Positions 629-34,963 of a stretch of 64,000 bases of DNA are shown one piece after another. The stretch lies in the NCBI GenBank assembly GCA_033664045.1, contig GCA_033664045.1_3674.1. One strand, 5' to 3'. The translations under genes and the position numbers were made by a program. The notes below the pieces were generated by a model, which was not told the origin of the DNA, did not search any database, and saw nothing but the letters and a program-made list of their open reading frames with translations. Position 1 is the stretch's first letter. Each line of letters opens with the position of its first letter. The stretch comes from a phage.

Positions 629-657
629 TTGTAAAAACGGCTATTTTATGATACAAT
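629..657 (+). promoter_or_regulatory. sigma70-like promoter TTGTAA-N17-TACAAT with extended -10 TG
   Basis: Hexamers at 629-634 and 652-657 with TG at 649-650, about 35 nt upstream of the ATG at 691. Confidence 0.5.
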
Positions 658-690
658 ATTTAGATGGTATCGGAGTGTCCTGGAGAGGTT

Positions 691-1575
691 ATGCCAAGCA
701 ATATAGTTGATGAAAAAGACCTGTACAAGCCTCAAGAGGTTAAATCTCCAAAGGCTGAAAAGGCAGAGCAGCAAACTGAAAGCGATGTAAAGTACACTAT
801 GTTTGTCAGTGGTCTTAACTATGGTGGTCGCAATACGGAGATGAAGGGTAAAAACTTTACTAACGATCTTGCCATCATCTTCGATCAGATTGAGAATTAC
901 TCTTTCAAACATTCTGTTGATAAGACTGATTTTGCGGTGGAAGATAAATCTACCCTGTCAGACCACGCTGTAATTAAAGATGGTGTATTTTCTTTTACTG
1001 GTAGGGTAAATACATCACCACATATAATCTATGAGCAAAACTACATTGACAGGAATACTGACTCTAAAAACCCTGCAGCATCTATGCGACCGGGCGCTGC
1101 ACTGGAGGCTTTGACTGAGATTATCAATAAACGACAGTTGGTTTCTTTGGTTACCGAAGAGAGACTTCTTGAGAACTACATTATAACCAGCCTTTCTGCC
1201 AGCAAGTCTGTTGGTGAAGGTGCTGCAATGGTTTTTGATGTAGAACTTACAGAGTTCCGCACATTCTACTTGAACAAGGTAGTTAATGCAACTGTATACA
1301 GCAATCCTAAGAAAGTAGGCAAGACCCAACAAAAAGGTGCTGTCAACGACTGTAAGAATGGTAGTAACGTAGGTAACAAGAGGGACACAGGAGCATTCGC
1401 AGACACAGCATCCACAAATGCTGCAGAGGAGTGGCAGCCATACAAATCTATGATGTGGACAGATGAAAACGGTGTTACCCAATCGGCTGCGGATTGGTAT
1501 TATCAGGAATATGGAAGACCTTCTACCATAGTCCCATCTGAGCAGGGGAACTACAACAAAGTTAACGGGAAATAA
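691..1575 (+). CDS. hypothetical virion structural protein
   Basis: Track ORF 664-1575 trimmed to Met10, which is preceded by GGAGAGG; no motif recognised. Confidence 0.5.
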   Translation: MPSNIVDEKDLYKPQEVKSPKAEKAEQQTESDVKYTMFVSGLNYGGRNTEMKGKNFTNDLAIIFDQIENYSFKHSVDKTDFAVEDKSTLSDHAVIKDGVFSFTGRVNTSPHIIYEQNYIDRNTDSKNPAASMRPGAALEALTEIINKRQLVSLVTEERLLENYIITSLSASKSVGEGAAMVFDVELTEFRTFYLNKVVNATVYSNPKKVGKTQQKGAVNDCKNGSNVGNKRDTGAFADTASTNAAEEWQPYKSMMWTDENGVTQSAADWYYQEYGRPSTIVPSEQGNYNKVNGK

Positions 1576-1587
1576 GGGGAGCGTATA

Positions 1588-1968
1588 ATGGAGCTTAAAG
1601 ATTGGTGCATAATCACCTTTGTGTGGGACATTGACGGCTTTCCTGATCAAACCATGCGTGTTGTTTTAGACAATGAAACGTATGAAATGCGTATGCAATG
1701 GAATGAGAGGGATGAGTCCTGGTGGTTATCTCTTGGTCCAGTAGGTGACAGCCCTTTAGTAACCAGAAAAGTAACAGCTTGTCAAGATATTTTAGACGGA
1801 CTGCATTACAGAGATGATTTACCGAAAGGTAGACTGATGGCGCTGTCGTTTAAAGACGATCAATATTGGGGCAGGGTTGGAAGATATAACCTTGGGGCGA
1901 GATCTGAGCTACAACTTGTATACGGCACCCCAGTTGATCTTTACAAGGAACAGCAAGGGTTAGAATAA
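1588..1968 (+). CDS. hypothetical tail/baseplate protein
   Basis: ORF with RBS AAGGGGAG; stop overlaps the next start (TAATG). Confidence 0.45.
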   Translation: MELKDWCIITFVWDIDGFPDQTMRVVLDNETYEMRMQWNERDESWWLSLGPVGDSPLVTRKVTACQDILDGLHYRDDLPKGRLMALSFKDDQYWGRVGRYNLGARSELQLVYGTPVDLYKEQQGLE

Positions 1969-2972
1969 TGGCAGAGTACAGACGTAGAACATGGCGATTA
2001 TTGTTTGGTCGTCCTGTAGAACATGGCGGTAAATCAAAAACCAATATCCCAAAATCTGTTGAAAAGAAAGGGGAGAGTGATTCCGGAGTTTATGAAGTTA
2101 GCTCAGACACTGGTGCTGCCAATATAGAGTTTGACATACAAAAGGACAATACCAAAGAGCCAAACAAAGGTTATGTGACAGTTTACAACCTGTCTGACGA
2201 TACAGTTAACTATTTGGATATGCATCAGGCTGATGCCCTTGCAGTTATGTTTGAAGCTGGCTATGATAATGAGAACCAGTTGATATTCTCTGGAACTGTA
2301 GAGTTTGTTGAAGACAGGTGGGAAGGTCCGACCAGAAAAACTAAGTTCATCTTTGGGGATGGCACTGAGAACATCATTAAGTGCCAAAGCACAAGATCTT
2401 ATCAGAAAGGCACACCTCTGAACTCTGTGCTTAATGACCTACTGAAGGATATGAACTTGCCAAAAGGTAGGGTTGTTGGTTTTGGAAACCAGACTTTGCA
2501 ATACTCTATGGCTTTCTCTGGAAACACTGCAGAGAACCTCCGCAGGTTTGCAAGGCTGACCAACTCAACATTTAGCGTTCAGGATGGGGCTTTGTATTGG
2601 ACCAAGGTTGGAAAAAGGTTCAAAGACTCTGTGTTTGAAATAAGTGCAGAGTCTGGGATGCACGGATCTCCTACCCCTAAAAACCCAGAACCTGCTAAAA
2701 AACGAAAAGCTAAAGCTGCTGCCAAAGGTGGTTCGACATCTAAAAAGAAAAAGAAAAACCCGAGAGAGGATGTTGGCCTTACTGTAACCACATGCCTTAA
2801 CGGAGCTATCCTCCCAGAGTCCACCATTTATCTTAAAAGCAAGCAATATACAGGCTTCTATAAAGTGATCACGGTGCATCATAAGGGCACCATAGAAGGT
2901 GGTGATTACACTACAGAGCTTGGCCTTGGAGAAACAGTGGGTGGAGTTGTTGACAAAACTGAGGAGGTATAA
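1968..2972 (+). CDS. hypothetical structural protein (possible baseplate hub) with Lys-rich segment
   Basis: ORF coupled by TAATG at both ends; contains KKRKAKAAAKGGSTSKKKKK; functional call is positional only. Confidence 0.45.
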   Translation: MAEYRRRTWRLLFGRPVEHGGKSKTNIPKSVEKKGESDSGVYEVSSDTGAANIEFDIQKDNTKEPNKGYVTVYNLSDDTVNYLDMHQADALAVMFEAGYDNENQLIFSGTVEFVEDRWEGPTRKTKFIFGDGTENIIKCQSTRSYQKGTPLNSVLNDLLKDMNLPKGRVVGFGNQTLQYSMAFSGNTAENLRRFARLTNSTFSVQDGALYWTKVGKRFKDSVFEISAESGMHGSPTPKNPEPAKKRKAKAAAKGGSTSKKKKKNPREDVGLTVTTCLNGAILPESTIYLKSKQYTGFYKVITVHHKGTIEGGDYTTELGLGETVGGVVDKTEEV

Positions 2973-3649
2973 TGGCAATAAATAGGAAAGATGCTGCTGT
3001 AAGATCCTTCATAGAAAAAATAATGAGGGACTACCACACCAGTATCAGGGCCAGAGTTGTCAGTGTAGACTACAGTATCCCTTCTGCAGCCGTGCAGCCA
3101 ATAGCTGAAACCACGTTTGATGACGGGGATGTAGAGAGATACCCTCTTATCTATGACGTTCCAATTCAGGTGATGTCTGCAAACAGCGGAAAGGCAAGGT
3201 TAACACTCCCTATTAAGGCTGGAGATGTTGTAGGATTGCAGTTTTCAGAGAGAAATGAAAACAATAACGACGATCAACAAACTCACGGTCTGTTTCCGGG
3301 GTGGGCAATAACCTCTGTTCATTCAGACTCAAACGCTTTACAGATCGATCCTGATAACGTAGAGTTATGGAATGATAGGGTTTATTTTAAACTGACACCT
3401 TCTGGAGATTTTGAGCTTCAAACACCTGGTGGGACACTACGGTGCGACAGCAGCGGGGAGTTTTCTTTCACTAACGGGGCTGCCAATTTGCGAGCTGCTG
3501 TGGATGGAAATATCAGAATGAATGGTGCCACAATAGACCCATCTGGTAGAATTATAACTGCTGCTGGCGTGGATTTGGATTCATTCTATGCAGAATATAA
3601 AGGTCATACCCACTCTTGTCCTGATGGCGAGACAAGTGGACCGCACTAA
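2972..3649 (+). CDS. baseplate central spike-like protein (gpV/gp5-type N-terminal fold suspected)
   Basis: N-terminal region RARVVSVDYS...AGDVVGLQF resembles the P2 gpV-type pattern from memory; His/Cys-containing C-terminus. Confidence 0.4.
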   Translation: MAINRKDAAVRSFIEKIMRDYHTSIRARVVSVDYSIPSAAVQPIAETTFDDGDVERYPLIYDVPIQVMSANSGKARLTLPIKAGDVVGLQFSERNENNNDDQQTHGLFPGWAITSVHSDSNALQIDPDNVELWNDRVYFKLTPSGDFELQTPGGTLRCDSSGEFSFTNGAANLRAAVDGNIRMNGATIDPSGRIITAAGVDLDSFYAEYKGHTHSCPDGETSGPH

Positions 3650-3661
3650 TAGAGGGCTTTC

Positions 3662-4378
3662 ATGGCTACGCTTTATAGTGATATATTGATGGACCCACAG
3701 ACAGGCGATTTGGCGATAGACAAAGGTCTTGAGTTGATAGATTCAAACCAGGTAAGTCTGCGCCAGCGCTTGTGGATGAGGTTTAATACGTGGAAGGGGA
3801 GCTGGTACTTTGACGAGCTGTTTGGCTTCCCTTATATGGACTTTCTCAGCAAGAAGGTCATGAAGACTGTTCTTGATAACAAGATCATGGAAGTAGCAAG
3901 ACAAGAGCCGGATGTGCTAAACATCATAAACTTCCAGTCTACCATGGATCGAAGATCGAGAACATACCAAGCGTTCTTTGAGGTTGTTACCAAAGAGAAC
4001 GAGATTGTAAGGCTGGCTTTCGTAGGTCTTGATCAGTTCACATACCCACAGCCTGATTCTGGGACAACCTCTCTCTGTGATGATGAGGGTTGGATTAAGT
4101 GGGCTAATAAACTGTACTATCTGATCAACTTCAGATTACCTAGAACCGGAGATGCCACATGGTGGAACCAGTATGCTGGTCCTGAGATGGAAAACCCGAT
4201 CCCTGTAGGTTCTCTGTTGACTCAGGATAAAGATCTGCTGATGACCGAGGCAGAACAAACCATTAACCGCAATACCTGGACGCTTGCTCCAGATGAGCGC
4301 GAATACTCTGGTGTTATTGCTACCTCTAATGATGAGGCTATTGCCAACCAGTCTGGTCGTGCTATTGATGTTAACTAA
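3662..4378 (+). CDS. putative baseplate protein
   Basis: ORF with RBS in the structural block; no firm motif. Confidence 0.35.
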   Translation: MATLYSDILMDPQTGDLAIDKGLELIDSNQVSLRQRLWMRFNTWKGSWYFDELFGFPYMDFLSKKVMKTVLDNKIMEVARQEPDVLNIINFQSTMDRRSRTYQAFFEVVTKENEIVRLAFVGLDQFTYPQPDSGTTSLCDDEGWIKWANKLYYLINFRLPRTGDATWWNQYAGPEMENPIPVGSLLTQDKDLLMTEAEQTINRNTWTLAPDEREYSGVIATSNDEAIANQSGRAIDVN

Positions 4379-11491: not shown

Positions 11492-11498
11492 CTGTTTT

Positions 11499-11523
11499 GC
11501 CCTCGCTTCGGCGGGGGCTTTTT
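11499..11523 (+). terminator. rho-independent terminator with TTCG tetraloop
   Basis: gccctcgcTTCGgcgggggc followed by ttttt, 8 nt after the fiber stop. Confidence 0.7.
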
Positions 11524-11530
11524 GTTTGTA

Positions 11531-11559
11531 TTGCGTATTAACTCAAAATCTGGTAAAAT
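11531..11559 (+). promoter_or_regulatory. promoter TTGCGT-N17-TAAAAT with extended -10 TG
   Basis: Hexamers at 11531-11536 and 11554-11559; same TGnTAAAATA motif as at 17065. Confidence 0.45.
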
Positions 11560-11590
11560 AACTATCATGATTGTTTAACCAGGAGGCACA

Positions 11591-12181
11591 ATGTTTTTAT
11601 GGGAAAGGCCTAGATACCTTCCAGATATTAGATTGGAGCTGCTGGCAGATATTGTTACGTTTAAAAGTCCGTTTACAGGTAAAACGCAAAAAGTAACCTA
11701 TGCCACACCTAACTGGAAAGGCACTTTGACGGTTTCCAATATCAGCGAGTCACAGTTGCTAGAGCTTAAGAGCTTTGTTGATCAGGTGTATAGAGATGGA
11801 AACATCTTTCTTATTAAAACTTACGGTCACTCAGTTACAGCTAATGAGCCAATCGCCCTTGGGCCTACTGGTAACGACGATTTTTTGAAGACGGTTGGGT
11901 GGGAGCCAAACAGAGACATAGCCAGAGCTGGGGATAAAATATCTGTCAATGATGAATTGAAAGTGGTAACAGCTCCAGTGCGTAGCGATGGTGTTGGGTC
12001 TGCTGTTATAAGCATATCTCCAAGACTTAGAAAACCTATTGCCGCAGGGGACACTATGAAGATAATAACTCAATCCCCGAAGGGTAGGTTTCATATCAGA
12101 GATATTTATAAAATTAAGCAAAAAGTTGATGCTATGCAAAAAGGTGATAATATAGTTATCAACTTCTTTGAGGATTTCTAA
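11591..12181 (+). CDS. distal tail/tail-tip protein (lambda M-like position)
   Basis: First gene of a four-gene set ending in an NlpC/P60-like protein and a J-like giant protein; RBS AGGAGG. Confidence 0.35.
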   Translation: MFLWERPRYLPDIRLELLADIVTFKSPFTGKTQKVTYATPNWKGTLTVSNISESQLLELKSFVDQVYRDGNIFLIKTYGHSVTANEPIALGPTGNDDFLKTVGWEPNRDIARAGDKISVNDELKVVTAPVRSDGVGSAVISISPRLRKPIAAGDTMKIITQSPKGRFHIRDIYKIKQKVDAMQKGDNIVINFFEDF

Positions 12182-12182
12182 G

Positions 12183-12734
12183 ATGATCAGAGCGCCATTA
12201 GATAATTTATTTCTTGAAAAGCTGGAGCTTGATGGTGTTGAGATCTTAATTGCTGCAAAGCTGGAGCTACCGACAGGAACTGTCAGGGTGTGCTCAGGCA
12301 CTGGTGTTGTAGTAATTGAGGGGCAACATTTTATAGGGATAGGTGGATCAGCAACATTAACTGCTGTGTCTGAGAAAGATGCCACCAACTTCGGATCTGT
12401 GGTAGCGACATTGAACGGGTTTGATCCTAAGTATGTGGGTGATCTACTGAAGACGGAGTATTCTGGGTGTCGTGCCACGTTGTACATTACCGCTATGGAG
12501 AATGGTCTACCTGTTACAACCAATGGCTTGTTTGACGGCCTTATAACAGATATGGCTATTCAGACGGGTGAGAATAGTGCTTTGTCCATATCCATCTCTT
12601 CCATCTTCAACAGTTGGTTAAGAGGTTTTCCTTATCGGTACACAGAGGAAAGCCATAGCTCAAGAAACGATAATGACAGATTTTTTAAATATGTGGATCA
12701 GGTGGCGAGTCGCCCGATCATTTGGGAGGTTTAA
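12183..12734 (+). CDS. tail-tip protein (lambda L-like position)
   Basis: Track ORF 12168 trimmed to the ATG at 12183, which has GAGGAT upstream and lies 2 nt after the previous stop. Confidence 0.35.
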   Translation: MIRAPLDNLFLEKLELDGVEILIAAKLELPTGTVRVCSGTGVVVIEGQHFIGIGGSATLTAVSEKDATNFGSVVATLNGFDPKYVGDLLKTEYSGCRATLYITAMENGLPVTTNGLFDGLITDMAIQTGENSALSISISSIFNSWLRGFPYRYTEESHSSRNDNDRFFKYVDQVASRPIIWEV

Positions 12735-13159
12735 TGAGCACACACCCTCGTTTAGTGGATTGGCAAGAAAGATTGTGGAAAGTATTTGACGAAGAGGCCA
12801 CCATACCTTTTGAATGGGGATTCCACGATTGTTGCACCTTTGCAGCTAAGTGTGTTGATGCCCAATACGGAACAGATTTTCTTTCTAACTTCGAAGGAAC
12901 GTATAAAACAGAGTTGGAAAGCAAAAGATGGTGCATGCTTCGTTTCAAAACTACACACCTGCCTACTATTTTTGATCTCTTTTTGACTCGACTGGATACT
13001 CCTAAACAGGTTCAGCGTGGCGATATTGTTATTTTCGAAGGTCTGAACGGCCTCACCGCTGGTGTGTTCTGGAACAACCAGATTTGGGCGAAAGGTAATA
13101 AAGGGATCTTTACGTTCGATATGAAAGATTCTATCGTTGTTGATGTCTGGAGGTATTAA
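12734..13159 (+). CDS. NlpC/P60-like tail protein (lambda K / GTA g14-like)
   Basis: PFEWGFHDCCTF (Cys motif) and RGDIVIFEG...AGVFW (His-region pattern); ATG overlaps the upstream stop (TAATG). Confidence 0.5.
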   Translation: MSTHPRLVDWQERLWKVFDEEATIPFEWGFHDCCTFAAKCVDAQYGTDFLSNFEGTYKTELESKRWCMLRFKTTHLPTIFDLFLTRLDTPKQVQRGDIVIFEGLNGLTAGVFWNNQIWAKGNKGIFTFDMKDSIVVDVWRY

Positions 13160-16100
13160 TGCCAATTGCAATGATTGATAACATCGTTGCTTCTGCAAGA
13201 TCTTCAAGTTATGACTGGAACGCATCCAAGGCAGCTCTGGCTGACAGCCTGAACACTGTTACCACCAGAACTCTGGATAAGATTTTTGAGGGCAACAAAT
13301 CTTACAGAAGTCAGCAAGATAGACAAAAGCTTCTCAGATCTTCTGCTGCACCTTGCTCTGTAGTGTATGGGAAGACACGCACATCCGGATTGCTTGCGTT
13401 TTTGGAGCAGGATAGAGACAGAACTCTCCACTGTGCTATTGTTCTTGCCAATCACCCTCTGGAAGGTATAGAAGATATACTTATCGACGGTAACCCTATT
13501 TCCTCGTATGGGGATTTGGTATCGTGGGAGCTACATAACGACAGAAAAACATCTGATCCTTTCATGGGGACACACTGCCCATCGTGGTCACCAGACATGA
13601 TAGGTAGAGGGATCAGTTGGCTACGTGCCAGTTTCAAGTTTGACCCTAACAAGTTTCCTTTTGGGTTGCCAAACGTTACACTCGTCAAGGTTGGTAAAAA
13701 ATGCTATGATCCTCGCATCAGTAAAGAGGTGTATACCAATAACGCTGCCTTGGTGATCTTAGACTATTTAAGAACGTACCTTAAATGTCCTGACGAAACC
13801 ATCAACTGGGAGTCCTTCAAGGAGGCTGCCAACATATGCGACGAGGCGGTAAAAAACGCTGACGGAACCAGTGAGCGACGTTACACCATTAACGGTGAGT
13901 TTGACATGGATGAGGTCCCCGCAAGTATTATGGCAGAAATGCTGAAAGCTTGCGGTGCAGACCTTAGTTATGTTGCTGGTAAGTATGGTTTGCTGGTTGG
14001 TGCATACTATGGTCCGGCAACAATGACATTGAGTGAGGACTGTGTCTGTGGTGAGGTTAAGATCTATCCGGAAGCCTCGTTTGACAAAAGATCCAACACA
14101 ATAACTGGCAGATTCACTAGTCCGACCAAAGGGTATTCTGAAACAGATTTTCCATCAGTGTTTGTCCCAGAGTGGATAGAGAAGGATGGAGAAAGAAAGA
14201 TAATCGATATAGACTACCGCTTTGTTACCAGTCCTTATCAAGCTCAACGTGTTTCTGCAATCTTCCTAAGACGTGCCAGAGCTGGCAGGATTATTGAAGT
14301 CACCTGCAATATGCGAGGTTTTAAATTTAAACCTGGTCGTTACGTTACAATGGACCTCCCAAGTATTGGTATAGTGGGCCAAGAAATGAGGGTTCTTGAA
14401 TGGGAGTTCACCAAAAAGGGCGGTGTCAAGGTAAAACTTCGTCAAGATGCTAAAGAGTGGAATGATGCCACAGGGCAACTTCCGGATTCTGGCGATGTAG
14501 ATATTCCGATATCTCCATCTGGTGTAGCTCAACCGCAAAACTTCAGATATTCCGTTCTCCAAGCTGGAGAAGTAACTCACGGTGTTTTGGCTTGGGACAA
14601 CGTTGGGACTTACGCTCAAAATATTGTGCAGGTAAGAAAGAACGGAGAGATTGTTTGGACAGCACAGACAGTTGAGCAGTTTGTCCGTGTTGAAGGCTTG
14701 ACCAAAGGGTCATACACAGCAACCGTGGTTGCAACATCCTATAAAGGTGGTGTATCTCCAGAAGCGTACTGTGAGTTTAACATTCAGGCACCTGAAGCTC
14801 CGGTTTCTGTAGAGGTTAAGCAAGGATACTTTGCTATCACCTTGATTCCGCATAGTAGGGATTTAGCAAGTGTTAGCACCCAGTATGACTTTTGGACATC
14901 TGGTATGACAAGGTTGCCAGACACCAGTGATGCAACCGTTACTTCAAACGCCACCCGTATGGGTGTTGGTTCAACTTGGACATCTGAAGGACTGCAGAAC
15001 GATAAGGTTTATTATTGGTATATTCGAACCACAAACGCTTTTGGTAGCTCTCAGTTTGTAGAATGCGCTGCACGCTGCTACACCTCTATAGAGGATTTGA
15101 TGCCTCAGATAGATGCCGAATTCAAAAAGACAGAAACTTATAAAGAGTTGATGAGCACTTTGGATTCCTCTATTGAAGAGGTTGAAAATCGTGTCACAGA
15201 ACTTAACAGGTACATGGAGGGTAGGGTAGATGAAGCGTTCCAGCAGCTTGGTGACAGAATAGGTGCGGTAGTTACAGAAACAACTCAGAAGTTTGAAGAT
15301 GTCAATGGTAACATTACAGCGCTGGATAGGAAACTTGTTGCTGCACAGAACAAATTCACCAACGACCTGAACACTGAAAGTGGCAGACTGGCATCTCTAA
15401 TCGAGACAACCAATAAAGCAACCACTGATCTTCTGAACAAAAAGACAGAGGCTTTAGATGAGAAATTGGTTGCCGCCAAAGGTGAGCTGGTAGAGCAGAT
15501 AGAGGGAGTTGAGAGCGGGTATTTAGCCGGAGATAAAACTCTGGATGGTAAGATCAATACTCAGAGAACAGAACTTGACGCAAGTATCTTGAGCACTAAC
15601 CAATCCACTGTAGATCTTTTGAACAGGACATCTGAAACTCTGGATCAAAAGATTAGTCAGACAAACGCGACGGTATCTAAAAACTATACCACCCTTGACG
15701 GCAAGATAACTACCGCAAAAACTGACCTCAACACCTTGATTGCCAATACCAACAAGGCCACCACTGACTTGCTGAATCAGAAAACATCTGCACTGTCAGA
15801 GCAGATAACTTCTGCACGTGGGGAGATTTCTACCAATAAGCAAGCGATTGATGCTTTGGATGGAAAACTGACCTCCACAAAAACAGCGCTGGATGCTACA
15901 ATTTCCGATACCAACAAAGCCACTGTGGACCTTATCAACGGCACAGCGTCAGCTATTCGTCAAGAACTTGCTGTTGCTAAGCAGGAGATCATGGATGATG
16001 TTGGGGATGTGTCTGAGATCAGGGCTGCAGTAGCTACAACATCTAAGGCTGTGACCGACTTAGAGGGTAAAGTAAATGCTCAATGGGGCACAAAAATACA

Positions 16101-16998
16101 GGTAGACTCCGCAGGGAATAAATATGTTGCAGGTATTCAGTTGGGGATGGAAGGGTCTGGAGGCCAAGTTCAATCCTACTTCATGGTTAGTGCAAACAAT
16201 TTTGCGGTATACAACCCTGGCAATGGAACAGCAACCCTTGCTTTCGCAATCAAGAACAACCAAGCATTCTTGAAAGACGCTTTTATAGAGAATGGCACGA
16301 TCTCCTCTGCCAAGATCGCACAAGAAATCTCGTCAAACAACTACGATGGCAACGGGTACCATAAATACGGTTGGTATATTAACAAGAACGGGCACGCCCA
16401 ATTTATGGATGTGTGGGTGAAAGGCAACATCAACGCTAGTTCTGGTAACTTCACAGGGGCAGTTAACGCCACAAGTGGTACCTTCCGTGGGGATGTTTAT
16501 GCCAATAATGGTAGCTTTAGGGGCACCATAGATGCAACCGGAGGTACCTTCCGTGGTCGTGTGGAAGCTTCTGTTATCCGCGCTAACCAGTTCGAAGGTG
16601 CAATTGTTGCACACAGAACTTACGGGGATTGTGCTCCAGTATATAACTCCCAGCAAAGGGTTTGCCGTTGGAGGTGGAGATACGTAGATAACGTTTCAGG
16701 TCAGGGTAAGAACGTAACATTCTTCTTTAAACTGAATGGTACTCTTGCCAGCTCCCAACTGAATGCATGGATAGCTGGTCATCAGATCCTTGCTGGCAAG
16801 AAGTATTTTAACGACAACAACGGTATGTGTGCGGTAGGGATAACAGGTCTGGGTGAACAAACTATAGATATTGTTATCGAGATCTACACACCATGGTCAA
16901 CGTCTTCTGTAACAGGGGTCGCAATATCCTGTCCTACTGTTGTGGTAAGCCGTTCTAACTCAAGCTTCCAGGGACCTTGGAACGAGTCTCACGACTAA
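13159..16998 (+). CDS. giant central tail fiber/host-specificity (J-like) protein with FN3-like region and coiled-coil repeats
   Basis: 1279 aa; central region resembles the lambda J / Phage-tail_3 pattern from memory; FN3-like segment; repeated TNKATTDLLN motifs; Gly-rich C-terminal beta region. Confidence 0.5.
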   Translation: MPIAMIDNIVASARSSSYDWNASKAALADSLNTVTTRTLDKIFEGNKSYRSQQDRQKLLRSSAAPCSVVYGKTRTSGLLAFLEQDRDRTLHCAIVLANHPLEGIEDILIDGNPISSYGDLVSWELHNDRKTSDPFMGTHCPSWSPDMIGRGISWLRASFKFDPNKFPFGLPNVTLVKVGKKCYDPRISKEVYTNNAALVILDYLRTYLKCPDETINWESFKEAANICDEAVKNADGTSERRYTINGEFDMDEVPASIMAEMLKACGADLSYVAGKYGLLVGAYYGPATMTLSEDCVCGEVKIYPEASFDKRSNTITGRFTSPTKGYSETDFPSVFVPEWIEKDGERKIIDIDYRFVTSPYQAQRVSAIFLRRARAGRIIEVTCNMRGFKFKPGRYVTMDLPSIGIVGQEMRVLEWEFTKKGGVKVKLRQDAKEWNDATGQLPDSGDVDIPISPSGVAQPQNFRYSVLQAGEVTHGVLAWDNVGTYAQNIVQVRKNGEIVWTAQTVEQFVRVEGLTKGSYTATVVATSYKGGVSPEAYCEFNIQAPEAPVSVEVKQGYFAITLIPHSRDLASVSTQYDFWTSGMTRLPDTSDATVTSNATRMGVGSTWTSEGLQNDKVYYWYIRTTNAFGSSQFVECAARCYTSIEDLMPQIDAEFKKTETYKELMSTLDSSIEEVENRVTELNRYMEGRVDEAFQQLGDRIGAVVTETTQKFEDVNGNITALDRKLVAAQNKFTNDLNTESGRLASLIETTNKATTDLLNKKTEALDEKLVAAKGELVEQIEGVESGYLAGDKTLDGKINTQRTELDASILSTNQSTVDLLNRTSETLDQKISQTNATVSKNYTTLDGKITTAKTDLNTLIANTNKATTDLLNQKTSALSEQITSARGEISTNKQAIDALDGKLTSTKTALDATISDTNKATVDLINGTASAIRQELAVAKQEIMDDVGDVSEIRAAVATTSKAVTDLEGKVNAQWGTKIQVDSAGNKYVAGIQLGMEGSGGQVQSYFMVSANNFAVYNPGNGTATLAFAIKNNQAFLKDAFIENGTISSAKIAQEISSNNYDGNGYHKYGWYINKNGHAQFMDVWVKGNINASSGNFTGAVNATSGTFRGDVYANNGSFRGTIDATGGTFRGRVEASVIRANQFEGAIVAHRTYGDCAPVYNSQQRVCRWRWRYVDNVSGQGKNVTFFFKLNGTLASSQLNAWIAGHQILAGKKYFNDNNGMCAVGITGLGEQTIDIVIEIYTPWSTSSVTGVAISCPTVVVSRSNSSFQGPWNESHD
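15400..15990 (+). repeat. degenerate intragenic tandem repeats (about 150-190 nt period) encoding coiled-coil heptads
   Basis: Four copies of acCAAtAAaGCaACcACTGAtcTtcTGAAc-like units at about 15409, 15596, 15748 and 15910. Confidence 0.6.
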
Positions 16999-17005
16999 CC
17001 TTTAA

Positions 17006-17033
17006 AGCCCCGCTTCGGCGGGGTTTATTTTTA
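17006..17033 (+). terminator. rho-independent terminator with TTCG tetraloop
   Basis: agccccgcTTCGgcggggtt followed by tatttttat, 7 nt after the stop at 16998. Confidence 0.75.
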
Positions 17034-17041
17034 TGCTCAGA

Positions 17042-17070
17042 TTGACTATTGTTACAAAATTTGGTAAAAT
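17042..17070 (+). promoter_or_regulatory. promoter TTGACT-N17-TAAAAT with extended -10 TG
   Basis: Hexamers at 17042-17047 and 17065-17070; 33 nt upstream of the GTG start. Confidence 0.55.
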
Positions 17071-17103
17071 ACCTTGTAGAGATTTTCATACCGGAGGAGT
17101 GAC

Positions 17104-18594
17104 GTGGCTAAGTATGGATTGACAGAGGCTGGTTTCGTTATACCAACCCTAAATGACCTAATCGTTGAAACTAAGCAAAGCCTGATCCGTGCTTTTGGCG
17201 AAAACTTCAACGTACAGAGTAACTCCGTTGCAGATAAGCTGACCACTATCTTCAACGAGCGAGAGTATCAACTTATTCTTATGGCAGCATCTGTATACGC
17301 ATCACAGACGCTGTATGGGGCAGAGGGTATTTACCTGGATGAGCTTCTTGGAAGACAGGGTATTTACCGAAGAGGCCGTTCTAAATCATCAGGTACCTGC
17401 CAGTTGACAATCAACACAACTGTGCCGTACAATATGATTTATGATTCCAAAACTTATACGCTGGACAGTGGCAACTTTGTTCTTAGCAACGATGTGCAAG
17501 TAGCAGGGAATCTTATTGCTCACAGAATAAATGCTCCAGACCTAAGGATTGGTAAATACAACTTTCAAATTACCAACCAGACAGATGGGAGTATCAAAAC
17601 AAAAAGTCTGGTTTTAACAGATAAGTCTCTGGACTCTTCTGATTTGCCAAGCTTTTACGGAGAGATTAAGCAATTCATTGTCGATAATACAACCCTGTTG
17701 AACGACGATTTGATTCAGATTGATATGTTGACAGGAACGTTGTGGATAGGGTACAATTCGAATCTTGATCAAGTTGGACTTAACAGTAGGGTAGATTTCA
17801 GAGTATCTCCGATTGTAGGGGAAAGAACTATCACACTGGATGTTATCGCTAACGAGGCTGGTGAGCTGTCAAGAGAGGCAGAAACCGTGACAACAATGTC
17901 ACCTACTCCCAGTGGATTTATCAAGCTTACCAACCGAGAAAGATTCAATGAGGGCAGGGATGTTGAGAAAGACTCAGAGTATCGCTTAAGAGCTTCCAGC
18001 ACAAAACAGTTAACATCTAAGGCTACTCGTCCTGCAATCCTTAGTGCTGTAAGCGAGGTGAAAGGTGTTGAGAAAGTGAGAGTGTTCTCCAACAACACCG
18101 ATAAAACTGATGCTAAAGGTATACCTCCTTACAAGTTCCAAGTGGTTGTGTTTGGTGGTGCAACGGAGGACATTTGCCAAGCACTTTACCAAACTATAGC
18201 CTGTACGAACAGGACTTATGGTAATATTTTCTACGATGTCACTACATCTGACGGTCAAACTGAAAGAATTTATTACTCCAAGGCAAATACCTACCGCCTA
18301 GATGTAAGAATTACCTATTCCGGAGCTGCTCTTTCCACAACCGAAAAAGATGCCATTGTAGAGGCTCTTTTGCAGGTTGTTAACGGACTGGATGTTGCAG
18401 ATACGTTGTACAATATCCAATTGGTCGGTGCTGCATCTGCTGCTGTGTCGATAGGCAGATTTAATAGACTGGTAATTCAAGTTAAACCCGTAGGAGCTTC
18501 TGATGAAGCTTATACTACAAACGATATTGTTGCGAACATGACCGAGGTGTTTGACCTCGACGAAAGTAATATAACTTTCCAACAAACTATTTAA
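17104..18594 (+). CDS. baseplate J-like protein
   Basis: GTG start with GGAGGAG RBS; N-terminal pattern resembles the Baseplate_J (P2 gpJ / T4 gp6) family from memory. Confidence 0.5.
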   Translation: MAKYGLTEAGFVIPTLNDLIVETKQSLIRAFGENFNVQSNSVADKLTTIFNEREYQLILMAASVYASQTLYGAEGIYLDELLGRQGIYRRGRSKSSGTCQLTINTTVPYNMIYDSKTYTLDSGNFVLSNDVQVAGNLIAHRINAPDLRIGKYNFQITNQTDGSIKTKSLVLTDKSLDSSDLPSFYGEIKQFIVDNTTLLNDDLIQIDMLTGTLWIGYNSNLDQVGLNSRVDFRVSPIVGERTITLDVIANEAGELSREAETVTTMSPTPSGFIKLTNRERFNEGRDVEKDSEYRLRASSTKQLTSKATRPAILSAVSEVKGVEKVRVFSNNTDKTDAKGIPPYKFQVVVFGGATEDICQALYQTIACTNRTYGNIFYDVTTSDGQTERIYYSKANTYRLDVRITYSGAALSTTEKDAIVEALLQVVNGLDVADTLYNIQLVGAASAAVSIGRFNRLVIQVKPVGASDEAYTTNDIVANMTEVFDLDESNITFQQTI

Positions 18595-18605
18595 GGCGGC
18601 GAGAT

Positions 18606-19292
18606 ATGGCAGAGATTAAGTCGGATGTTAACCACATCCACACTCTGCCAGATTTTGTTCAGGGAGGTCTTGACTACCTGCCTGGAGATTTTCTGGCTGA
18701 GAAGGTTAATTTAGTCACATTCTTAACCGTATACCTTAAAAGGTTGGAGGATGTTGATAAGATGCTGGTAGGTTTGGCTGAAGGAAGATTGCTTAACAAT
18801 GCCAGCGGAAGATACCTTGACGAAGTTGGTAATCAACTTGGTATTCTTAGGAATGGACTTTCAGATGCTGATTTTCGTGCCACACTAATTATTCAGCAGG
18901 CCGCAGCATCAAGGGGCGGGACTCGCGAAGATGTCATCTCCACCTTGCGACAATTGTTCGGAAGAGACAATTTCGATACGTGGAAAGGAGACAACTTCAG
19001 GTTTGACATAAATATTAGAAAAACTTGCTTTGACATATTGCAGTCTATCGATCAGATCTTAGATATGCTGCCATTGCCTTGTCATTTGCGTCTTACAGAA
19101 TCGCAAGGGCAAGCTTTTGGTTTTGAAGGGGACTCTACAGCTCTTGGCTTCGGATCAGTGTGGGAAGAAAACCAATTCGGAGTTGGTGGGCTGGCTACTT
19201 TGCTATATGTTCCTGACGTAAGACCTGATTGGGACACCACAACCATTTATTGTGAAAGTATTACAGTAAACGCAACTAGACAGGAGGGTTAA
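18606..19292 (+). CDS. baseplate wedge protein (P2 gpI / DUF2313-like)
   Basis: Directly follows the J-like gene; pattern LP...A.GRYLDE.G...G..R...SDADFR. Confidence 0.4.
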   Translation: MAEIKSDVNHIHTLPDFVQGGLDYLPGDFLAEKVNLVTFLTVYLKRLEDVDKMLVGLAEGRLLNNASGRYLDEVGNQLGILRNGLSDADFRATLIIQQAAASRGGTREDVISTLRQLFGRDNFDTWKGDNFRFDINIRKTCFDILQSIDQILDMLPLPCHLRLTESQGQAFGFEGDSTALGFGSVWEENQFGVGGLATLLYVPDVRPDWDTTTIYCESITVNATRQEG

Positions 19293-21364
19293 TGGCAACA
19301 GCTGTTTTTAAACCTTACCGTGATTACTCTACAATGGCTGCACAGTTTCATTACCGAACAGTTCAGGATACTGCCGTTCCTGGTAGGGATTATAATCATG
19401 TTGAGGGCGATGTAACTATCCCAATTGGGGCAACCAGTATTGAAATCCCAGTGGAAATTGTTGACAAATTACCCAACAGGTTACCAAGAAGCTTCTTTAT
19501 GGAGTTTTCATCAAAATCTCAAGGGGTGATGATTGGGACACAAAGGGCAAAATGCACAATAGTTTCAGATGAGAATCTTGACAGGATATCTTGGGATACT
19601 GTTGAGGAGAGAATGTTTCACCCAAGATATTGGGTTACAACCACCCAGCAGACTGAAAGTACCTGTATTGTTGCAGATGACAACTGTTGTATTAACCGTT
19701 TAGTGTCAAGAACATATGGAGGTATGGCTGGGTGCATTTGGGAAACAGTTGACAAGTATGACCATTTCGGTATTGGGTTTGATGATCACTATGAGATGAG
19801 AAACACCAAGCTTTGGTTCAGAATGTCAATAACCAATGCCAGCAACTTCTCCACTCCTGAAAAGATGATTATGACTGTAGACCTTGTTGATGGCACAATC
19901 ATCTATGTTCCTTTAGCTCAATATGCTGTCAGCATCTCAGAGGATAAGAATGTTGCAGAGATTCATATTGATTTCGAGGACTGCGTCGGGATGGATCAGA
20001 ACAACAACATGATGGGTGTTGATCCTCGACAGGTGAGAAGGATTTTAATACCGCTTATGCCTAAAGATTGGGTAAGTAATAGCACAGACCCGAGAACGGA
20101 AAATGTAGAGTGCGAGTTGCGCTTAGACCTGCTTCAGCCAGACACAGGTTGGAAAATGATGCAACTTAACAATATTCAGGTTAAAGAGCACGACGTTGGG
20201 ATCTGCACCGCATATGACGATATGTGGAACGTATCTCCTTTAAGGGTGTTGAACAATATCAAGCGTCTGGGCTATACCGGAACCATAAACCATTATGTTG
20301 GTATGAGTCATTATTATGACTACACATGGTCAGGAACCCAATGGTCTATAAACAGAACAGGGGCGCTAAACGCTGCAGCTTATAAATGGCATGATGATTT
20401 TATGTACAATGCCAAACGACATAACTTCGACGTTATGCAGTCTGTAAGTTTTGAGCTTTACAGCGATGCCTGTCCGTTGGAATGGACCCAAAGAGACTGG
20501 AACGATAACTACGCTAAAACAGGGTATACACCTTGTAGCTACCTCCTGTCTCCAACCATTGAAGAGGGTATGAATTTCCTTACGGCAGTATTTAAGAATT
20601 TTGCATCAGCCGCTATGAGAAACAACCTGCCAGTGATTATGCAGATTGGTGAACCGTGGTGGTGGTTCAATACCGATACTCGTAAGCCTTGTATTTATGA
20701 TTACCCTACAAAACAGGCGTTTTATGATGAGACAGGCGAGTATGCATTAGATATTGGGACTATTGACGATCCTAAAACTGGCGGTGTTTACGACAAGTAT
20801 GTAGCATTTTGTCGTGGTAAGCTTGGCGCTCGTATTGCGGCTATTTCAAAGGCAATAAAAGCACACGCTGCATCAGCTCAGATGACAGCTTTGCTGTTTT
20901 TCCCAACCATTATGGAAACCGAGCTTACGCAAAAGCTGAACCTTGCTGACCAATATAAAAAGGAAGCAGGTGCTCTTGATTTCTTCTGCACTGAGTGCTA
21001 CGATTGGGTGATGCAGGGAGGTATTGAAAAGGCAAAAGAGTCTGTAAACATACCTATCGTTAAGTTAGGTTGGCAACCGTCTGAAATACAATACCTTGCA
21101 GGGTTCGTTCCTAGTAAAGAGCTTGCTCCGGTATATGGCTACGACCCAACCAGGAATTACCAAGAATTTTTATGGAGATGTATCTGCGGGAACATGGCAA
21201 CCATAGAGTATAGATACCCTGAGGTAAAACAGTATGTGTGGGCATACCCGCAAGTAATGTCTGACAGCATCACTGTTACCGCTAGGGATTCTACCGTGCT
21301 TCATATGGGGCAGGTTGCTCTGAAAGGGTATGTAGAAGATGTTGTCCCGCCAGACTTCTCATAA
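19292..21364 (+). CDS. tail fiber/baseplate-associated protein (690 aa)
   Basis: TAATG-coupled to the gpI-like gene; Trp-rich, no firm motif. Confidence 0.35.
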   Translation: MATAVFKPYRDYSTMAAQFHYRTVQDTAVPGRDYNHVEGDVTIPIGATSIEIPVEIVDKLPNRLPRSFFMEFSSKSQGVMIGTQRAKCTIVSDENLDRISWDTVEERMFHPRYWVTTTQQTESTCIVADDNCCINRLVSRTYGGMAGCIWETVDKYDHFGIGFDDHYEMRNTKLWFRMSITNASNFSTPEKMIMTVDLVDGTIIYVPLAQYAVSISEDKNVAEIHIDFEDCVGMDQNNNMMGVDPRQVRRILIPLMPKDWVSNSTDPRTENVECELRLDLLQPDTGWKMMQLNNIQVKEHDVGICTAYDDMWNVSPLRVLNNIKRLGYTGTINHYVGMSHYYDYTWSGTQWSINRTGALNAAAYKWHDDFMYNAKRHNFDVMQSVSFELYSDACPLEWTQRDWNDNYAKTGYTPCSYLLSPTIEEGMNFLTAVFKNFASAAMRNNLPVIMQIGEPWWWFNTDTRKPCIYDYPTKQAFYDETGEYALDIGTIDDPKTGGVYDKYVAFCRGKLGARIAAISKAIKAHAASAQMTALLFFPTIMETELTQKLNLADQYKKEAGALDFFCTECYDWVMQGGIEKAKESVNIPIVKLGWQPSEIQYLAGFVPSKELAPVYGYDPTRNYQEFLWRCICGNMATIEYRYPEVKQYVWAYPQVMSDSITVTARDSTVLHMGQVALKGYVEDVVPPDFS

Positions 21365-32194: not shown

Positions 32195-32224
32195 AAAAAG
32201 GGGCCAAACGGCCCCTTTCTTTTT
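32195..32224. terminator. bidirectional rho-independent terminator at the strand switch
   Basis: aaaaaggggccAAACggcccctttcttttt; A-run upstream and T-run downstream, between convergent stops at 32182 and 32229. Confidence 0.75.
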
Positions 32225-32228
32225 ATAA

Positions 32229-32429
32229 TTAGTAATATTCCCAACACGACCCATCTTCAGACGGCTGGACACGTTTACCTTCATGATCGACATAGGTGTA
32301 ACCACAGCCTTCACAGATAACAGGGGCCGCATAACCTTCCTTCCACTGGTCTTCTGTGATCAGTCCTTTCAGATCTCCGCAGTCACGACCAAACAACTCT
32401 TCAGAACAATCTTTGCAAAAATCAGCCAT
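32229..32429 (-). CDS. C4 zinc-ribbon protein (66 aa)
   Basis: CKDC...CEGC pairs; RBS GAGGA. Confidence 0.45.
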   Translation of the reverse strand: MADFCKDCSEELFGRDCGDLKGLITEDQWKEGYAAPVICEGCGYTYVDHEGKRVQPSEDGSCWEYY

Positions 32430-32432
32430 TTC

Positions 32433-34961: not shown

Positions 34962-34963
34962 GA

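Follow-up and report, generated by a model that had tools for sequence, protein, structure and literature searches.

Gene content of the distal tail region

The window (the whole 64,000 nt stretch of DNA analysed) comes from a Vequintavirus, i.e., an rV5-like myophage of E. coli, and shows 97.8% nucleotide identity to many genomes. The region is covered to at least 80% by 112 independent phage records, mostly at 95–99% identity. RefSeq and BASEL annotations were taken from slur16 and WalterGehring, which are 97.6–97.7% identical across the region, and in these genomes the genes for sheath, tube and tape measure lie directly upstream.

Six ORFs between 11591 and 19292 were verified on the plus strand (Table 1). 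In the annotated relatives (RefSeq, BASEL), the second and third start at ATG 12183 and ATG 12734 rather than at upstream TTGs. Positions 11591–16998 hold a four-gene tail-tip cassette (Dit, L-like, DUF6950 and J) that forms a 5.4-kb transcription unit, with the last lateral-fibre gene on its left and the wedge genes on its right.

Table 1. Baseplate genes, cassette genes and boundary units in the window, with the domains of the J-like protein.
Feature	Position	Strand	Supporting match or content
Tube initiator (Dit_like family), first ring of central baseplate hub	664..1575	+	Pfam Dit_like 1.4e-22
Baseplate plug/spacer, Pam3 gp18 type	1588..1968	+	Pfam Pam3_gp18 2.9e-18
Trimeric baseplate hub of contractile tail	1968..2972	+	PHROG 196 'baseplate hub' 2e-83
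Central membrane-piercing spike, phi92 gp138 / P2 gpV type	2972..3649	+	PF18352 1.4e-9
Sheath initiator, gp25-like, myovirus marker within window	3662..4378	+	PHROG 120 'baseplate wedge subunit' 1e-20
Left boundary unit	11492..11590	+	intrinsic terminator 11499-11518, then extended -10 promoter-like site TGGTAAAATA 11551-11560, RBS
Siphovirus-type distal tail protein (Dit), 196 aa	11591..12181	+	PHROG 1302 'distal tail protein' 1e-50
L-like hub piece, 183 aa	12183..12734	+	PHROG 2048 9e-68
DUF6950 protein, 141 aa, gpK/g14 position	12734..13159	+	Pfam DUF6950 1e-33
J-like hub and fibre protein, 1279 aa	13159..16998	+	Phage_Tail_Tip 1e-38, Ig_J_second 1e-30
J, hub	residues 48-490		
J, two Ig/FN3 domains	residues 493-652		
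J, coiled coil	residues ~650-955		
J, tail-tip fibre domain	residues 957-1097		
J, lineage-specific C-terminal domain	residues 1117-1279		
Right boundary unit	16999..17103	+	terminator 17005-17026, then promoter-like site TGGTAAAATA 17062-17071
Large baseplate wedge, 496 aa, T4 gp6 / P2 gpJ type	17104..18594	+	Pfam Baseplate_J 3.8e-9
Small baseplate wedge, 228 aa, P2 gpI position	18606..19292	+	PHROG 4056 2.5e-103

A complete contractile-tail baseplate

The first baseplate gene is annotated in BASEL as 'tail tube initiator' and its product and the homologue in SSE121 are 51% identical in aa; for the hub protein the value is 60%. The plug has its equivalent in phi92 gp136 (PMC13450770), and the L091 homologue of the sheath initiator carries PF10934 (Sheath_initiator). 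For three proteins, the spike and both wedges, homologues with solved structures in phiTE and phi92 were checked directly. The spike matches the phiTE puncture protein (9cuy_Y, 5e-62) and phi92 gp138 (3pqi_A (3PQI), 2.5e-18), confirming the gpV-like candidate proposed within 2972–4378. The large wedge, which matches phiTE Wedge 2 (2e-158) and phi92 gp145 (1e-55), is the baseplate J-like protein predicted to follow the cassette directly. The small wedge matches phiTE Wedge 1 (6e-67) and phi92 gp146 (3e-23), and it is because of these solved homologues that it is given a wedge role; the gpI-like assignment stands for its position, but the DUF2313 profile gave no match to it. Wedge protein identity falls gradually through the myophage genera (60%, 50% and 32%).

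With tube initiator to sheath initiator encoded at 664–4378 and the wedges at 17104–19292, the contractile baseplate set (tube initiator, plug, hub, spike, sheath initiator and two wedges) is therefore complete without the cassette. The original prediction had named assignment of its proteins to unrelated families, or a lack of myovirus markers together with a simple siphovirus tip, as outcomes that would count against it; the proteins did not fall into unrelated families, and myovirus markers are present.

Proteins of the cassette

The AF2 model of Dit (pLDDT 86.6) gives a full-length Foldseek match to T5/DT57C pb9 (E 7e-9, TM 0.66), and the protein is predicted to carry the T5 pb9 fold. Sequence identity to the Seuratvirus and PY54 Dits is 33–37% (33% for Seuratvirus). 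Vequintavirus Dits are 32–38% identical to those of siphophages, which share 49–64% with each other. Dit is the tube-proximal component and is diverging unusually fast.

The L-like protein is 40% identical to its Seuratvirus counterpart. Its AF2 model (pLDDT 72) was matched by Foldseek to the T5 pb3 N-terminus, GTA g13, T1 gpL and lambda gpL (E 7e-6 to 2e-4), and PF09931 (formerly DUF2163) was matched weakly in 8 of 60 homologues. A conserved KKDAP tail at the C-terminus is found in 78 of the 79 copies from siphophages and in none of the four from Vequintavirus.

The third protein had been called NlpC/P60-like. It occupies the gpK/g14 position, but its family is DUF6950: the D-C and Q-x-G-D motifs are invariant in the family alignment, an invariant His is absent from it, and NLPC_P60 was matched by only one of 14 members, weakly (E 0.1). 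An NlpC/P60 identity is unproven. The protein is 45% identical to its Seuratvirus counterpart and 46–49% to those of Queuovirinae, and family members are found at the matching position in Mesorhizobium, Paracoccus and Pseudomonas phages.

The giant protein is assigned to PHROG 31 ('central tail fiber J', 8e-163), also its RefSeq name, and matches lambda J in the PDB (2e-28) and lambda_TipJ (2e-45). Residues 48–758 are 54% identical to the J of Seuratvirus, and identity of J to that of Queuovirinae is 58%. The N-terminal profile finds T5 pb3 residues 264–764 (3e-11), T1 J (2e-9) and, in a Mesorhizobium phage, the megatron (2e-8). In T5 the L-like piece and the J N-terminus have their joint counterpart in one hub protein, pb3. 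Mean hydropathy of the 40 residues preceding the J hub is +1.02 across 79 copies from siphophages but −0.41 in Vequintavirus, where nine of these residues are charged. Among the matches listed, the C-terminal domain of J occurs in Vequintavirus only.

Synteny, boundaries and distribution

The predicted order of three small genes and a giant J-like gene, as in lambda and GTA, was found in all 80 related loci fetched, and it is not a chance resemblance. Dit and L-like sizes are near constant in these loci, the DUF6950 protein ranges from 132 to 144 aa, and J varies in length. Besides Queuovirinae and PY54, roughly 75 contigs of enterobacterial siphophages and the GTA-like phages have the cassette 3′ of the tape measure gene; in the GTA-like group the annotated layout (Dit, hub, peptidase, megatron) matches that of the cassette. 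The cassette is most closely related to that of Queuovirinae, which are siphophages of E. coli.

The right boundary unit is a near-duplicate of the left one. SSE121 has a single equivalent terminator-promoter unit, upstream of its wedge gene, whereas the window has two, flanking the cassette. The near-identity of the two units in the window could simply follow from the consensus that promoters and terminators share in this phage, and upstream of 23432 there is a third, looser example. None of the four cassette proteins matched the tail regions of Seunavirus SSE121 or the phi92-like phage alia by tblastn, although every core baseplate gene did. Homologues of Dit and of the J N-terminus are at least 90–95% identical within Vequintavirus and less than 60% identical elsewhere, where, among the matches listed, all lie in siphophage-sized genomes; as the tblastn lists were read only in sampled rows, a further myophage with the cassette may have escaped notice.

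Judged from these sequence comparisons, the cassette appears to be a genus-specific insertion added to a complete myovirus baseplate. The hybrid tail of the original prediction holds in that the genome encodes both a siphovirus tip set and a myovirus baseplate, but it is better read as an add-on. The simplest account is horizontal transfer, in which the cassette would have entered an intergenic terminator-promoter unit 5′ of the wedge genes; which way the genes moved, and that they were inserted once, is deduced from the distribution. Alternatively, the common ancestor of Vequintavirinae and their relatives would already have had the cassette, and Seunavirus, Certrevirus and phi92-like phages would have lost it. 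The saturated dS between Vequintavirus lineages, which makes the cassette old in this genus, and the long branches of Dit and L-like relative to all siphophage copies are in keeping with such a history, but it requires multiple independent clean losses, and the very same site in SSE121 still carries one terminator-promoter unit that is intact. J and the DUF6950 protein also group closest with those of Queuovirinae, E. coli siphophages, so that a donor sharing the host fits better than deep ancestry, which we consider quite improbable.

Selection and exchange

Selection was assessed by comparison with a divergent Vequintavirus lineage, for which synonymous sites are saturated. Identity to this lineage is 84% for Dit, 87% for L-like, 57% for DUF6950 and 79% for J, and dN/dS is 0.02–0.16 where computable, the DUF6950 gene being the least constrained of the four (0.16). 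All four cassette genes are under purifying selection. In L093 the wedge proteins are 99% identical and the cassette proteins 57–87%; Vequintavirus lineages swap the cassette as one unit. The cassette ORFs are intact and translationally coupled. That the cassette is a decaying passenger, or that the contig is chimeric, would find a point in its favour only in the foreign origin of the genes, and is scarcely credible given the 112 phage records, the intact coupled ORFs, the strong purifying selection and the J peptides found in virions (see below).

Possible role of the cassette

In the virion proteome of rV5, J (gp37, 1279 aa) was weakly detected, with four peptides, 4.2% coverage and one convincing tryptic peptide. 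Peptides of Dit, L-like and DUF6950 were sought among the 19 proteins detected, and none was found. Lambda gpK is required for tip assembly and is absent from the particle, and it is conceivable that J alone is structural here, as an ordinary lateral fibre, with the other three products serving as unincorporated folding or assembly helpers of its hub domain. Such an arrangement would agree with the recovery of J peptides alone among cassette products and with the lower constraint on DUF6950 than on the other three, but a proteome of 19 proteins is too shallow to exclude low-copy small proteins, which may escape detection. Dit and L-like are constrained like the wedge proteins (84–87% identity, saturated dS) and retain full-length structural folds, and the L-like piece completes the hub in solved tips and is fused to it in T5. 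A helper role for all three is thus unlikely.

The cassette probably encodes a tip complex that was gained by horizontal transfer and now serves as an accessory fibre module. Dit, L-like and J may still build a tip-like complex, with a Dit ring, a trimeric hub and a fibre of approximately 60–70 nm, which would no longer cap the tail tube or conduct DNA. Docked on the baseplate or the fibre network, it would act as an accessory adsorption organelle displaying the lineage-specific C-terminal domain of J. The DUF6950 protein probably contributes to complex assembly or is a minor enzymatic component. Loss of contacts to tube, tape measure and membrane channel would fit three lineage-specific changes: loss of the hydrophobic J N-terminus, loss of the conserved L-like tail and the unusual speed at which Dit diverges.

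A J without its hydrophobic N-terminus would also suit a coaxial layout that has the spike in the hub lumen. The Dit-L-J complex would then be axial, placed under or around the gp138-like spike, as a true central fibre that must open or be shed at sheath contraction. By their fold matches, Dit rings and J hubs are made for axial six-fold to three-fold stacking, loss of the hydrophobic segment, which in siphophages presumably sits in the lumen or the membrane, would clear the lumen, and the RefSeq label also suggests a central fibre. However, the phi92 and phiTE baseplates, whose core parts all have homologues here, shut the axis with spike and wedge pins and need nothing further, reconstructions of the Bas49 and Bas54 baseplates show fibres at the periphery only, and micrographs of rV5 show five to six thin 70-nm fibres and no single central one. 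An axial object of ~0.6 MDa would probably have drawn notice, and a position on the axis seems rather improbable. In keeping with an accessory fibre module, a cryo-EM study of two Vequintaviruses could place only three of the nine fibres annotated and reported that the head of one fibre was joined to density that fits no fibre model (PMC12143355). An E. coli myophage with a full contractile baseplate also encodes a full siphovirus tip set, probably reused as an extra host-binding fibre.

Comparison with known tail systems

The baseplate resembles those of phi92 and phiTE, whose structures are known from cryo-EM, and the simple P2/Mu-type baseplate; the spike and both wedges are directly homologous to those of phiTE and phi92, while tube initiator, plug, hub, sheath initiator and gene order agree by family and annotation. 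The Dit/L/DUF6950/J cassette is absent from the published part lists of phi92 and phiTE, and from alia and SSE121.

The predicted lambda/GTA-like tip is supported by gene order, J homology and the fold matches to gpL and g13. The lambda series gpM-gpL-gpK-gpI-gpJ shares the small-small-small-giant order, the Ig and tail-tip fibre domains of lambda J are homologous to those of J here, and the gpL fold matches the L-like model (8iyk_L, E 2e-4). The likeness does not extend to the lambda M, L and K families, for which a Pfam search gave no sequence-level match in the cassette proteins, and the cassette differs from lambda in having no gpI gene, JAB domain or four-Cys Fe-S site; gpM has 109 aa compared with 196 aa for the two-domain Dit. 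Rhodobacter capsulatus GTA g12–g15 and GTA-like siphophages have the same four-gene layout, and in GTA-like phages with a megatron, DUF6950 fills the 'peptidase' slot. The g13 fold matches the L-like model (6tba_7A, E 1e-4), but L-like has 183 aa compared with 292 aa and so lacks the C-terminal domain of g13. Of the GTA-related profiles, DUF2460 gave no match and Phage-tail_3 was sub-threshold (E 0.11).

In T5/DT57C, pb9 is the best structural match for Dit, and the pb3 N-terminus matches the L-like model. T5 pb3 is a single chain, whereas the hub here is split into L-like and J, and the fibre part is nearer to lambda and T1 J than to T5 pb4. The T5 complex caps the tube, while that of Vequintavirus would lie away from the tube end.

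Queuovirinae (Seuratvirus, Nonagvirus), PY54 and enterobacterial siphophages and prophages share all four families (PHROGs 1302, 2048, 2134 and 31) in identical order, with near-equal Dit, L-like and DUF6950 sizes and stop codons that overlap the next start, as here. Their cassette lies 3′ of the tape measure gene and provides the sole tail tip, while in Vequintavirus it lies 3′ of a lateral-fibre gene in a myophage with its own hub and spike, lacks the hydrophobic J N-terminus and the L-like KKDAP, and has a longer coiled coil and another J C-terminal domain. The cassette is of the Queuovirinae/PY54 type, and structurally nearest to T5 pb9 and pb3 and to GTA g12–g15.

Genomic setting and contractile-tail baseplate genes

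Over 11591-19292 the window shares 97.8% nucleotide identity with Escherichia phage phiWec191, and about 100 other rV5-like phages (genus Vequintavirus) match this region at 95-99%; these relatives are myophages of about 137 kb. The rV5-like phages are among the most often isolated E. coli myophages, are included in therapy and biocontrol cocktails, and have been noted for broad host recognition. Eighteen GenBank records (MG065644-MG065682), titled 'Campylobacter phage' and giving Campylobacter jejuni as host, also match the region and the proteins encoded at 11591-16998 (about 97.5-97.7% nucleotide identity among the matches listed). Their sizes are Vequintavirus-like, and the stated host is questionable.

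Between 24 and 32182 every gene is on the plus strand, and the genes are densely packed. At about 32.2 kb both the GC skew and the coding strand flip, and they flip back at about 40 kb; the interval (about 32200-40000) marks where the structural operon ends and a block of small genes on the minus strand lies. In phages slur16 and WalterGehring (BASEL collection), genes for the major capsid, neck, tail sheath, tail tube, chaperones and tape measure lie upstream of the point where the window starts.

The window carries a complete set of myovirus baseplate genes (see table). Two myovirus markers, the sheath initiator and the spike, are inside it, and the sheath and tube genes, which the original proposal was to seek outside it, are annotated directly upstream in genomes 97.6-97.7% identical over the region. 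The large wedge protein has a Baseplate_J domain (36.7 bits, cut-off 21.1) and solved homologues in phiTE, phi92, Bas63, Pam3 and XM1. The small wedge protein has no Pfam match to DUF2313, the gpI family, at E values up to 10, and its only Pfam match is to DUF2612 (E 0.25); its wedge role rests on phiTE Wedge 1 and phi92 gp146, not on the P2 gpI profile. The cryo-EM part lists of phiTE (PMC11972413) and phi92 (PMC13450770) consist of exactly these baseplate proteins plus fibres, so the original prediction was right in placing a spike within 2972-4378, in recognising Baseplate_J, and in the position and wedge role, though not the family profile, of its gpI-like gene.

Baseplate genes, tail-tip cassette and flanking units in the window
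Feature	Coordinates	Strand	Length (aa)	Matches or elements
Tape measure gene, end	24-584	+
Tube initiator	664-1575	+		Pfam Dit_like 1.4e-22
Plug	1588-1968	+		Pam3_gp18 2.9e-18
Hub	1968-2972	+		PHROG 196, 2e-83
Central spike	2972-3649	+		phiTE puncture protein 5e-62; phi92 gp138 crystal structure 2.5e-18
Sheath initiator	3662-4378	+		PHROG 120; PF10934 on homologue
Left terminator-promoter unit	11492-11590			terminator 11499-11518; promoter-like 11551-11560
Dit	11591-12181	+	196	PHROG 1302 'distal tail protein' 1e-50
L-like hub piece	12183-12734	+	183	PHROG 2048 'tail protein' 9e-68
DUF6950 protein	12734-13159	+	141	PHROG 2134 (unnamed) 9e-49
J	13159-16998	+	1279	PHROG 31 'central tail fiber J' 8e-163
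Right terminator-promoter unit	16999-17103			terminator 17005-17026; promoter-like 17062-17071
Large wedge protein	17104-18594	+		Baseplate_J 3.8e-9; phiTE Wedge 2 2e-158; phi92 gp145 1e-55
Small wedge protein	18606-19292	+		phiTE Wedge 1 6e-67; phi92 gp146 3e-23

A siphovirus tail-tip cassette of the Queuovirinae/PY54 type

The four genes between the last fibre gene and the wedge genes are a siphovirus tail-tip cassette of the Queuovirinae/PY54 type. All four proteins match those of the Seuratvirus KS_A3 and of phage PY54 by BLASTP (1e-28 to 0.0), with amino acid identities of 33-37% for Dit, 29-40% for the L-like protein, 45% for the DUF6950 protein and 40-54% for J. In both phages the tape measure gene is followed by genes for Dit (194-198 aa), a 194-aa 'tail protein', a 133-144-aa protein and J, PY54 having one additional small ORF. 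The order Dit, hub piece, DUF6950, J, with coupled genes, is kept in the window as in all 80 loci returned by a scan of IMG/VR. Mesorhizobium phage P1 has the same layout, annotated as distal tail protein, hub protein, peptidase and megatron, as have Paracoccus phage Shpa and Pseudomonas phage MR15, and in all three the third slot is filled by DUF6950. What stood of the lambda/GTA-like tip first proposed was this GTA-type four-gene layout, the gpL/g13 fold and the J domains described below; profile matches to lambda M and L were lacking.

At the level of annotation the genes are not new: they entered GenBank with the sequence of rV5, and the labels 'tip attachment protein J', 'central tail fiber J' and 'distal tail protein' are in use for them in several records. 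An incomplete literature search found no paper treating the four as one imported siphovirus tip complex, or its role, and searches on DUF6950, the Vequintavirus central tail fibre and myovirus distal tail proteins returned no discussion of the cassette.

Folds and domains of the cassette proteins

Profiles of the Dit, L-like and DUF6950 alignments gave nothing significant against PDB sequences, making structure prediction followed by Foldseek necessary. For Dit, a word-based homologue search with the 196-aa protein alone returned just 7 close relatives, and a repeat search from alignments seeded with IMG/VR loci succeeded. The resulting model (79 sequences, pLDDT 86.6) matched pb9 of T5 and DT57C over its full length (8hqz_H, 6.7e-9; 7qg9_V, 2.9e-8), with a TM score of 0.65-0.66 over about 206 columns, as well as the Dits of R4C, Chi and JBD30, and the protein is accordingly modelled as having a distal tail protein fold. 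No Pfam match to the lambda gpM family (Phage_min_tail) appeared at E values up to 10, and hhalign of the Dit alignment with the single lambda M sequence gave a probability of 0.2%. DUF2460 likewise had no Pfam match at E values up to 10, and the NCBIfam search gave no match to DUF2460, Phage_min_tail, Phage_tail_L or DUF2313.

The model of the L-like protein (pLDDT only 72) resembled the N-terminal part of T5/DT57C pb3, tip proteins of JBD30 and Sf11, and, with a probability of 1.00 each, GTA g13 (6tba_7A, 1.2e-4), T1 gpL (9l9p_J, 1.6e-4) and lambda gpL (8iyk_L, 2.3e-4). On this model it shares the fold of the last three. Neither Phage_tail_L nor PF09931 (formerly DUF2163) matched the window protein in Pfam at E values up to 10, although PF09931 was weakly present in 8 of 60 homologues (best E 0.002), and hhalign found no match to the single lambda L sequence (probabilities of 0.2-7.5% across the M, L and K runs). 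It also differs from lambda gpL in the four-cysteine site of the Fe-S cluster, having two cysteines, neither of them invariant in the alignment.

The 141-aa protein belongs to Pfam DUF6950 (1e-33). An invariant D-C pair (D32-C33) and an invariant Q-x-G-D motif in 14 diverse members are reminiscent of motifs of NlpC/P60, the family first suggested for this gene. That assignment is not established: the NLPC_P60 profile matched one of the 14 members, weakly (E 0.1), hhalign with the single lambda K sequence aligned only the Q-x-G-D motif (probability 7.5%), and no histidine to pair with a catalytic cysteine is invariant among the 14. If derived from NlpC/P60, the protein may not be a conventional hydrolase. 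The labels 'cell wall hydrolase' and 'CHAP protein', used for it by some GenBank annotators, are names rather than tests.

J matches Phage_Tail_Tip (1.2e-38) and Ig_J_second (1.2e-30), both above their cut-offs, and Ig_J below its 29-bit cut-off (24.7 bits, 2.5e-5). It matches lambda J in the PDB at 1.7e-28, and scores 154.6 bits on the NCBIfam lambda_TipJ equivalog against a cut-off of 1950. A profile of 11 J N-termini found T5 pb3 residues 264-764 (2.8e-11), T1 J (1.9e-9) and gp24 (7e-7), showing an N-terminal baseplate-hub domain, while Pfam Phage-tail_3 reached only E 0.11 there. Since the L-like protein resembles the N-terminus of pb3 and J its residues 264-764, the two together are the equivalent of a whole baseplate hub protein divided between two chains. 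Beyond the hub, J continues with two lambda-J Ig domains, some 300 residues of coiled coil, a lambda-type tail-tip fibre domain and, in Vequintavirus alone, a C-terminal domain of roughly 160 residues; the alignment to Seuratvirus J covers residues 48-758.

Among Vequintavirus loci J occurs in lengths of 1199, 1279 and 1381 aa (window compared with L005 and L091). The indels are in the coiled coil (window 15200-16100, residues about 700-1000), whereas identity over the hub and over the C-terminal 280 residues remains at 78-93%. Because the differences concentrate in the coiled coil, it seems to be the length of the fibre that varies rather than its tip. Judged by position in a published alignment, J seems to rank among the most variable 'lateral fibre' genes. 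The 1279-aa gp37 of rV5 was detected in virions (4 peptides, 4.2% coverage) in a proteome of just 19 proteins, and the same file contains no peptides of the three small cassette proteins. This pattern would suit an alternative in which J alone is structural and the other cassette proteins are helpers; on the other side stand the predicted Dit fold and the split hub, in which the L-like protein would be a structural partner of J.

Insertion site, selection and exchange

In tblastn searches of the 33-kb tail regions of SSE121 (Seunavirus) and alia (phi92-like), every core baseplate gene of the window was matched, and none of the four cassette proteins was. Wedge protein identity falls gradually by myophage genus (Seunavirus 60%, Certrevirus about 50%, phi92-like 32%), while that of Dit and the J N-terminus jumps from at least 90-95% within Vequintavirus to below 60% in siphophages. 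The tblastn matches to Dit fell into two groups: Vequintaviruses at 90% or more, and, below 60%, genomes that were all siphophage-sized among the matches listed (PY54, Seuratvirus, Nonagvirus, and Vibrio, Providencia and Acinetobacter phages). From these comparisons the cassette is taken to be an insertion specific to the genus Vequintavirus. An unlikely alternative is ancestral presence followed by multiple losses.

Where the cassette lies in the window, SSE121 has just one unit, made up of a terminator hairpin, a T-run, an extended -10 and an RBS, between the last fibre gene and the wedge gene. Two near-duplicates of such a unit flank the cassette exactly, with 66 of about 106 aligned columns identical; TGGTAAAATA occurs exactly twice in the 64 kb, and the pair of units accounts for both copies. 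A looser third unit upstream of 23432 indicates that part of this similarity is the regulatory consensus of this phage, and the boundary repeats were for that reason not adopted as proof of insertion scars.

In the comparison with L091, a Vequintavirus lineage divergent from the window, synonymous sites have reached saturation, yet amino acid identity is 84% for Dit, 87% for the L-like protein, 57% for the DUF6950 protein, the least constrained of the four between lineages, and 79% for J. Where computable, dN/dS in the cassette is 0.02-0.16, similar to the wedge proteins. These ratios, the many relatives at 95-99% and the J peptides in virions led to rejection of an artefact or pseudogene reading. 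In a further locus, L093 (GCA_034689965.1), both wedge proteins are 99% identical to those of the window, but the cassette (8001-13172) is divergent (82% for J); it carries the L091 allele, with values against the window identical to those of L091 for the first three proteins. The cassette thus recombines, and is exchanged, as a unit.

The Vequintavirus proteins also differ from the siphophage ones in specific parts. Their Dit stands apart, sharing 32-38% identity with siphophage Dits, which share 49-64% among themselves, whereas J and the DUF6950 protein are in or near the siphophage identity range, with Queuovirinae closest. The L-like protein stops 11 residues early, without the GSKKDAPGFxY tail; the KKDAP C-terminus is present in 78 of 79 siphophage copies and in none of 4 Vequintavirus copies. 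Over the 40 residues before the J hub start, 79 siphophage copies have a mean Kyte-Doolittle value of +1.02 (range 0.60-1.36) and at most 4 charged residues, compared with -0.41 and 9 charged residues in Vequintavirus.

Neighbouring modules

The gene directly downstream of the wedge genes (19292-21364) encodes a 690-aa homologue of the phage N4 gp65 'non-contractile tail sheath' receptor-binding protein, with PF23845 (1e-79), PF23844 (8.5e-13) and Calx-beta domains. A 2026 preprint links a domain shared with N4 gp65 to recognition of the NGR polysaccharide. The gene is missing from the equivalent position in SSE121 and lies elsewhere in the fibre cluster of alia (42% amino acid identity); given its N4 homology and differing position, it represents a second morphotype-crossing module in the locus. 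PF18668, an N-terminal TSP1/gp66-type adaptor domain, is common to a 222-aa protein (4388-5056) and the 1266-aa fibre (7691-8100), and recurs on different fibres in sister genera (e.g., SSE121, locus L089, 10275-10949 and 13748-14146), suggesting a branched tailspike-adaptor system like that of CBA120/G7C.

A possible accessory tip complex

The locus holds a foreign, complete and selected tip cassette, with its own predicted expression unit, inside an otherwise complete myovirus baseplate cluster. Tentatively, and with slightly less than even confidence, we propose that Vequintaviruses build a complete, tube-less siphovirus tip (Dit ring, split hub and J fibre) mounted on the contractile-tail baseplate as an accessory organelle. 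In the favoured reading of the cassette, its three structural products would still assemble as a Dit ring, a trimeric hub and a fibre some 60-70 nm long; the complex would no longer cap a tube or form a channel, and, docked on the baseplate or fibre network, would serve as an additional adsorption device. By analogy with the solved lambda and T5 tips, the parts that have changed (J N-terminus, L-like tail and Dit) are expected to be those facing tube, tape measure and membrane.

It is unclear, according to the BASEL paper, which genes build which fibre in rV5-like phages. In the RBPseg cryo-EM study (PMC12143355), 3 of 9 annotated fibres were fitted in two Vequintaviruses, and density at the head of one fibre is fitted by no fibre model. 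The tip complex could be this fibre-head-connected density in the Bas49 and Bas54 maps. For the Vequintavirinae fibre of class TC5, the same study notes an N-terminal region 'common in central tail fibers'. A less likely rival arrangement is a coaxial central tip beneath the spike.

Treating the four genes as one imported tip complex supplies a specific model, open to testing, for some of the missing density, and explains the hub domain on one of the most variable 'lateral fibre' genes. It also provides a case in nature of an entire multi-protein tail machine, beyond a receptor-binding domain, crossing tail morphotypes and taking on a new use. If the accessory reading is true, a DNA-conduit machine would have become, as a whole, the anchor of a fibre. 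Because natural exchange already moves the cassette as a unit, it is a candidate swap unit for host-range engineering.

In Queuovirinae and PY54, whose tails are non-contractile, the cassette follows directly on the tape measure gene. In the window it is preceded instead by the 1266-aa fibre gene, which has an S74 chaperone domain, and the tape measure gene, 11 kb upstream, is followed by the myovirus tube initiator. The Queuovirinae/PY54 cassette further combines a hydrophobic J N-terminus of about 40 residues with the KKDAP tail of the hub piece, and the Vequintavirus copies are without both.
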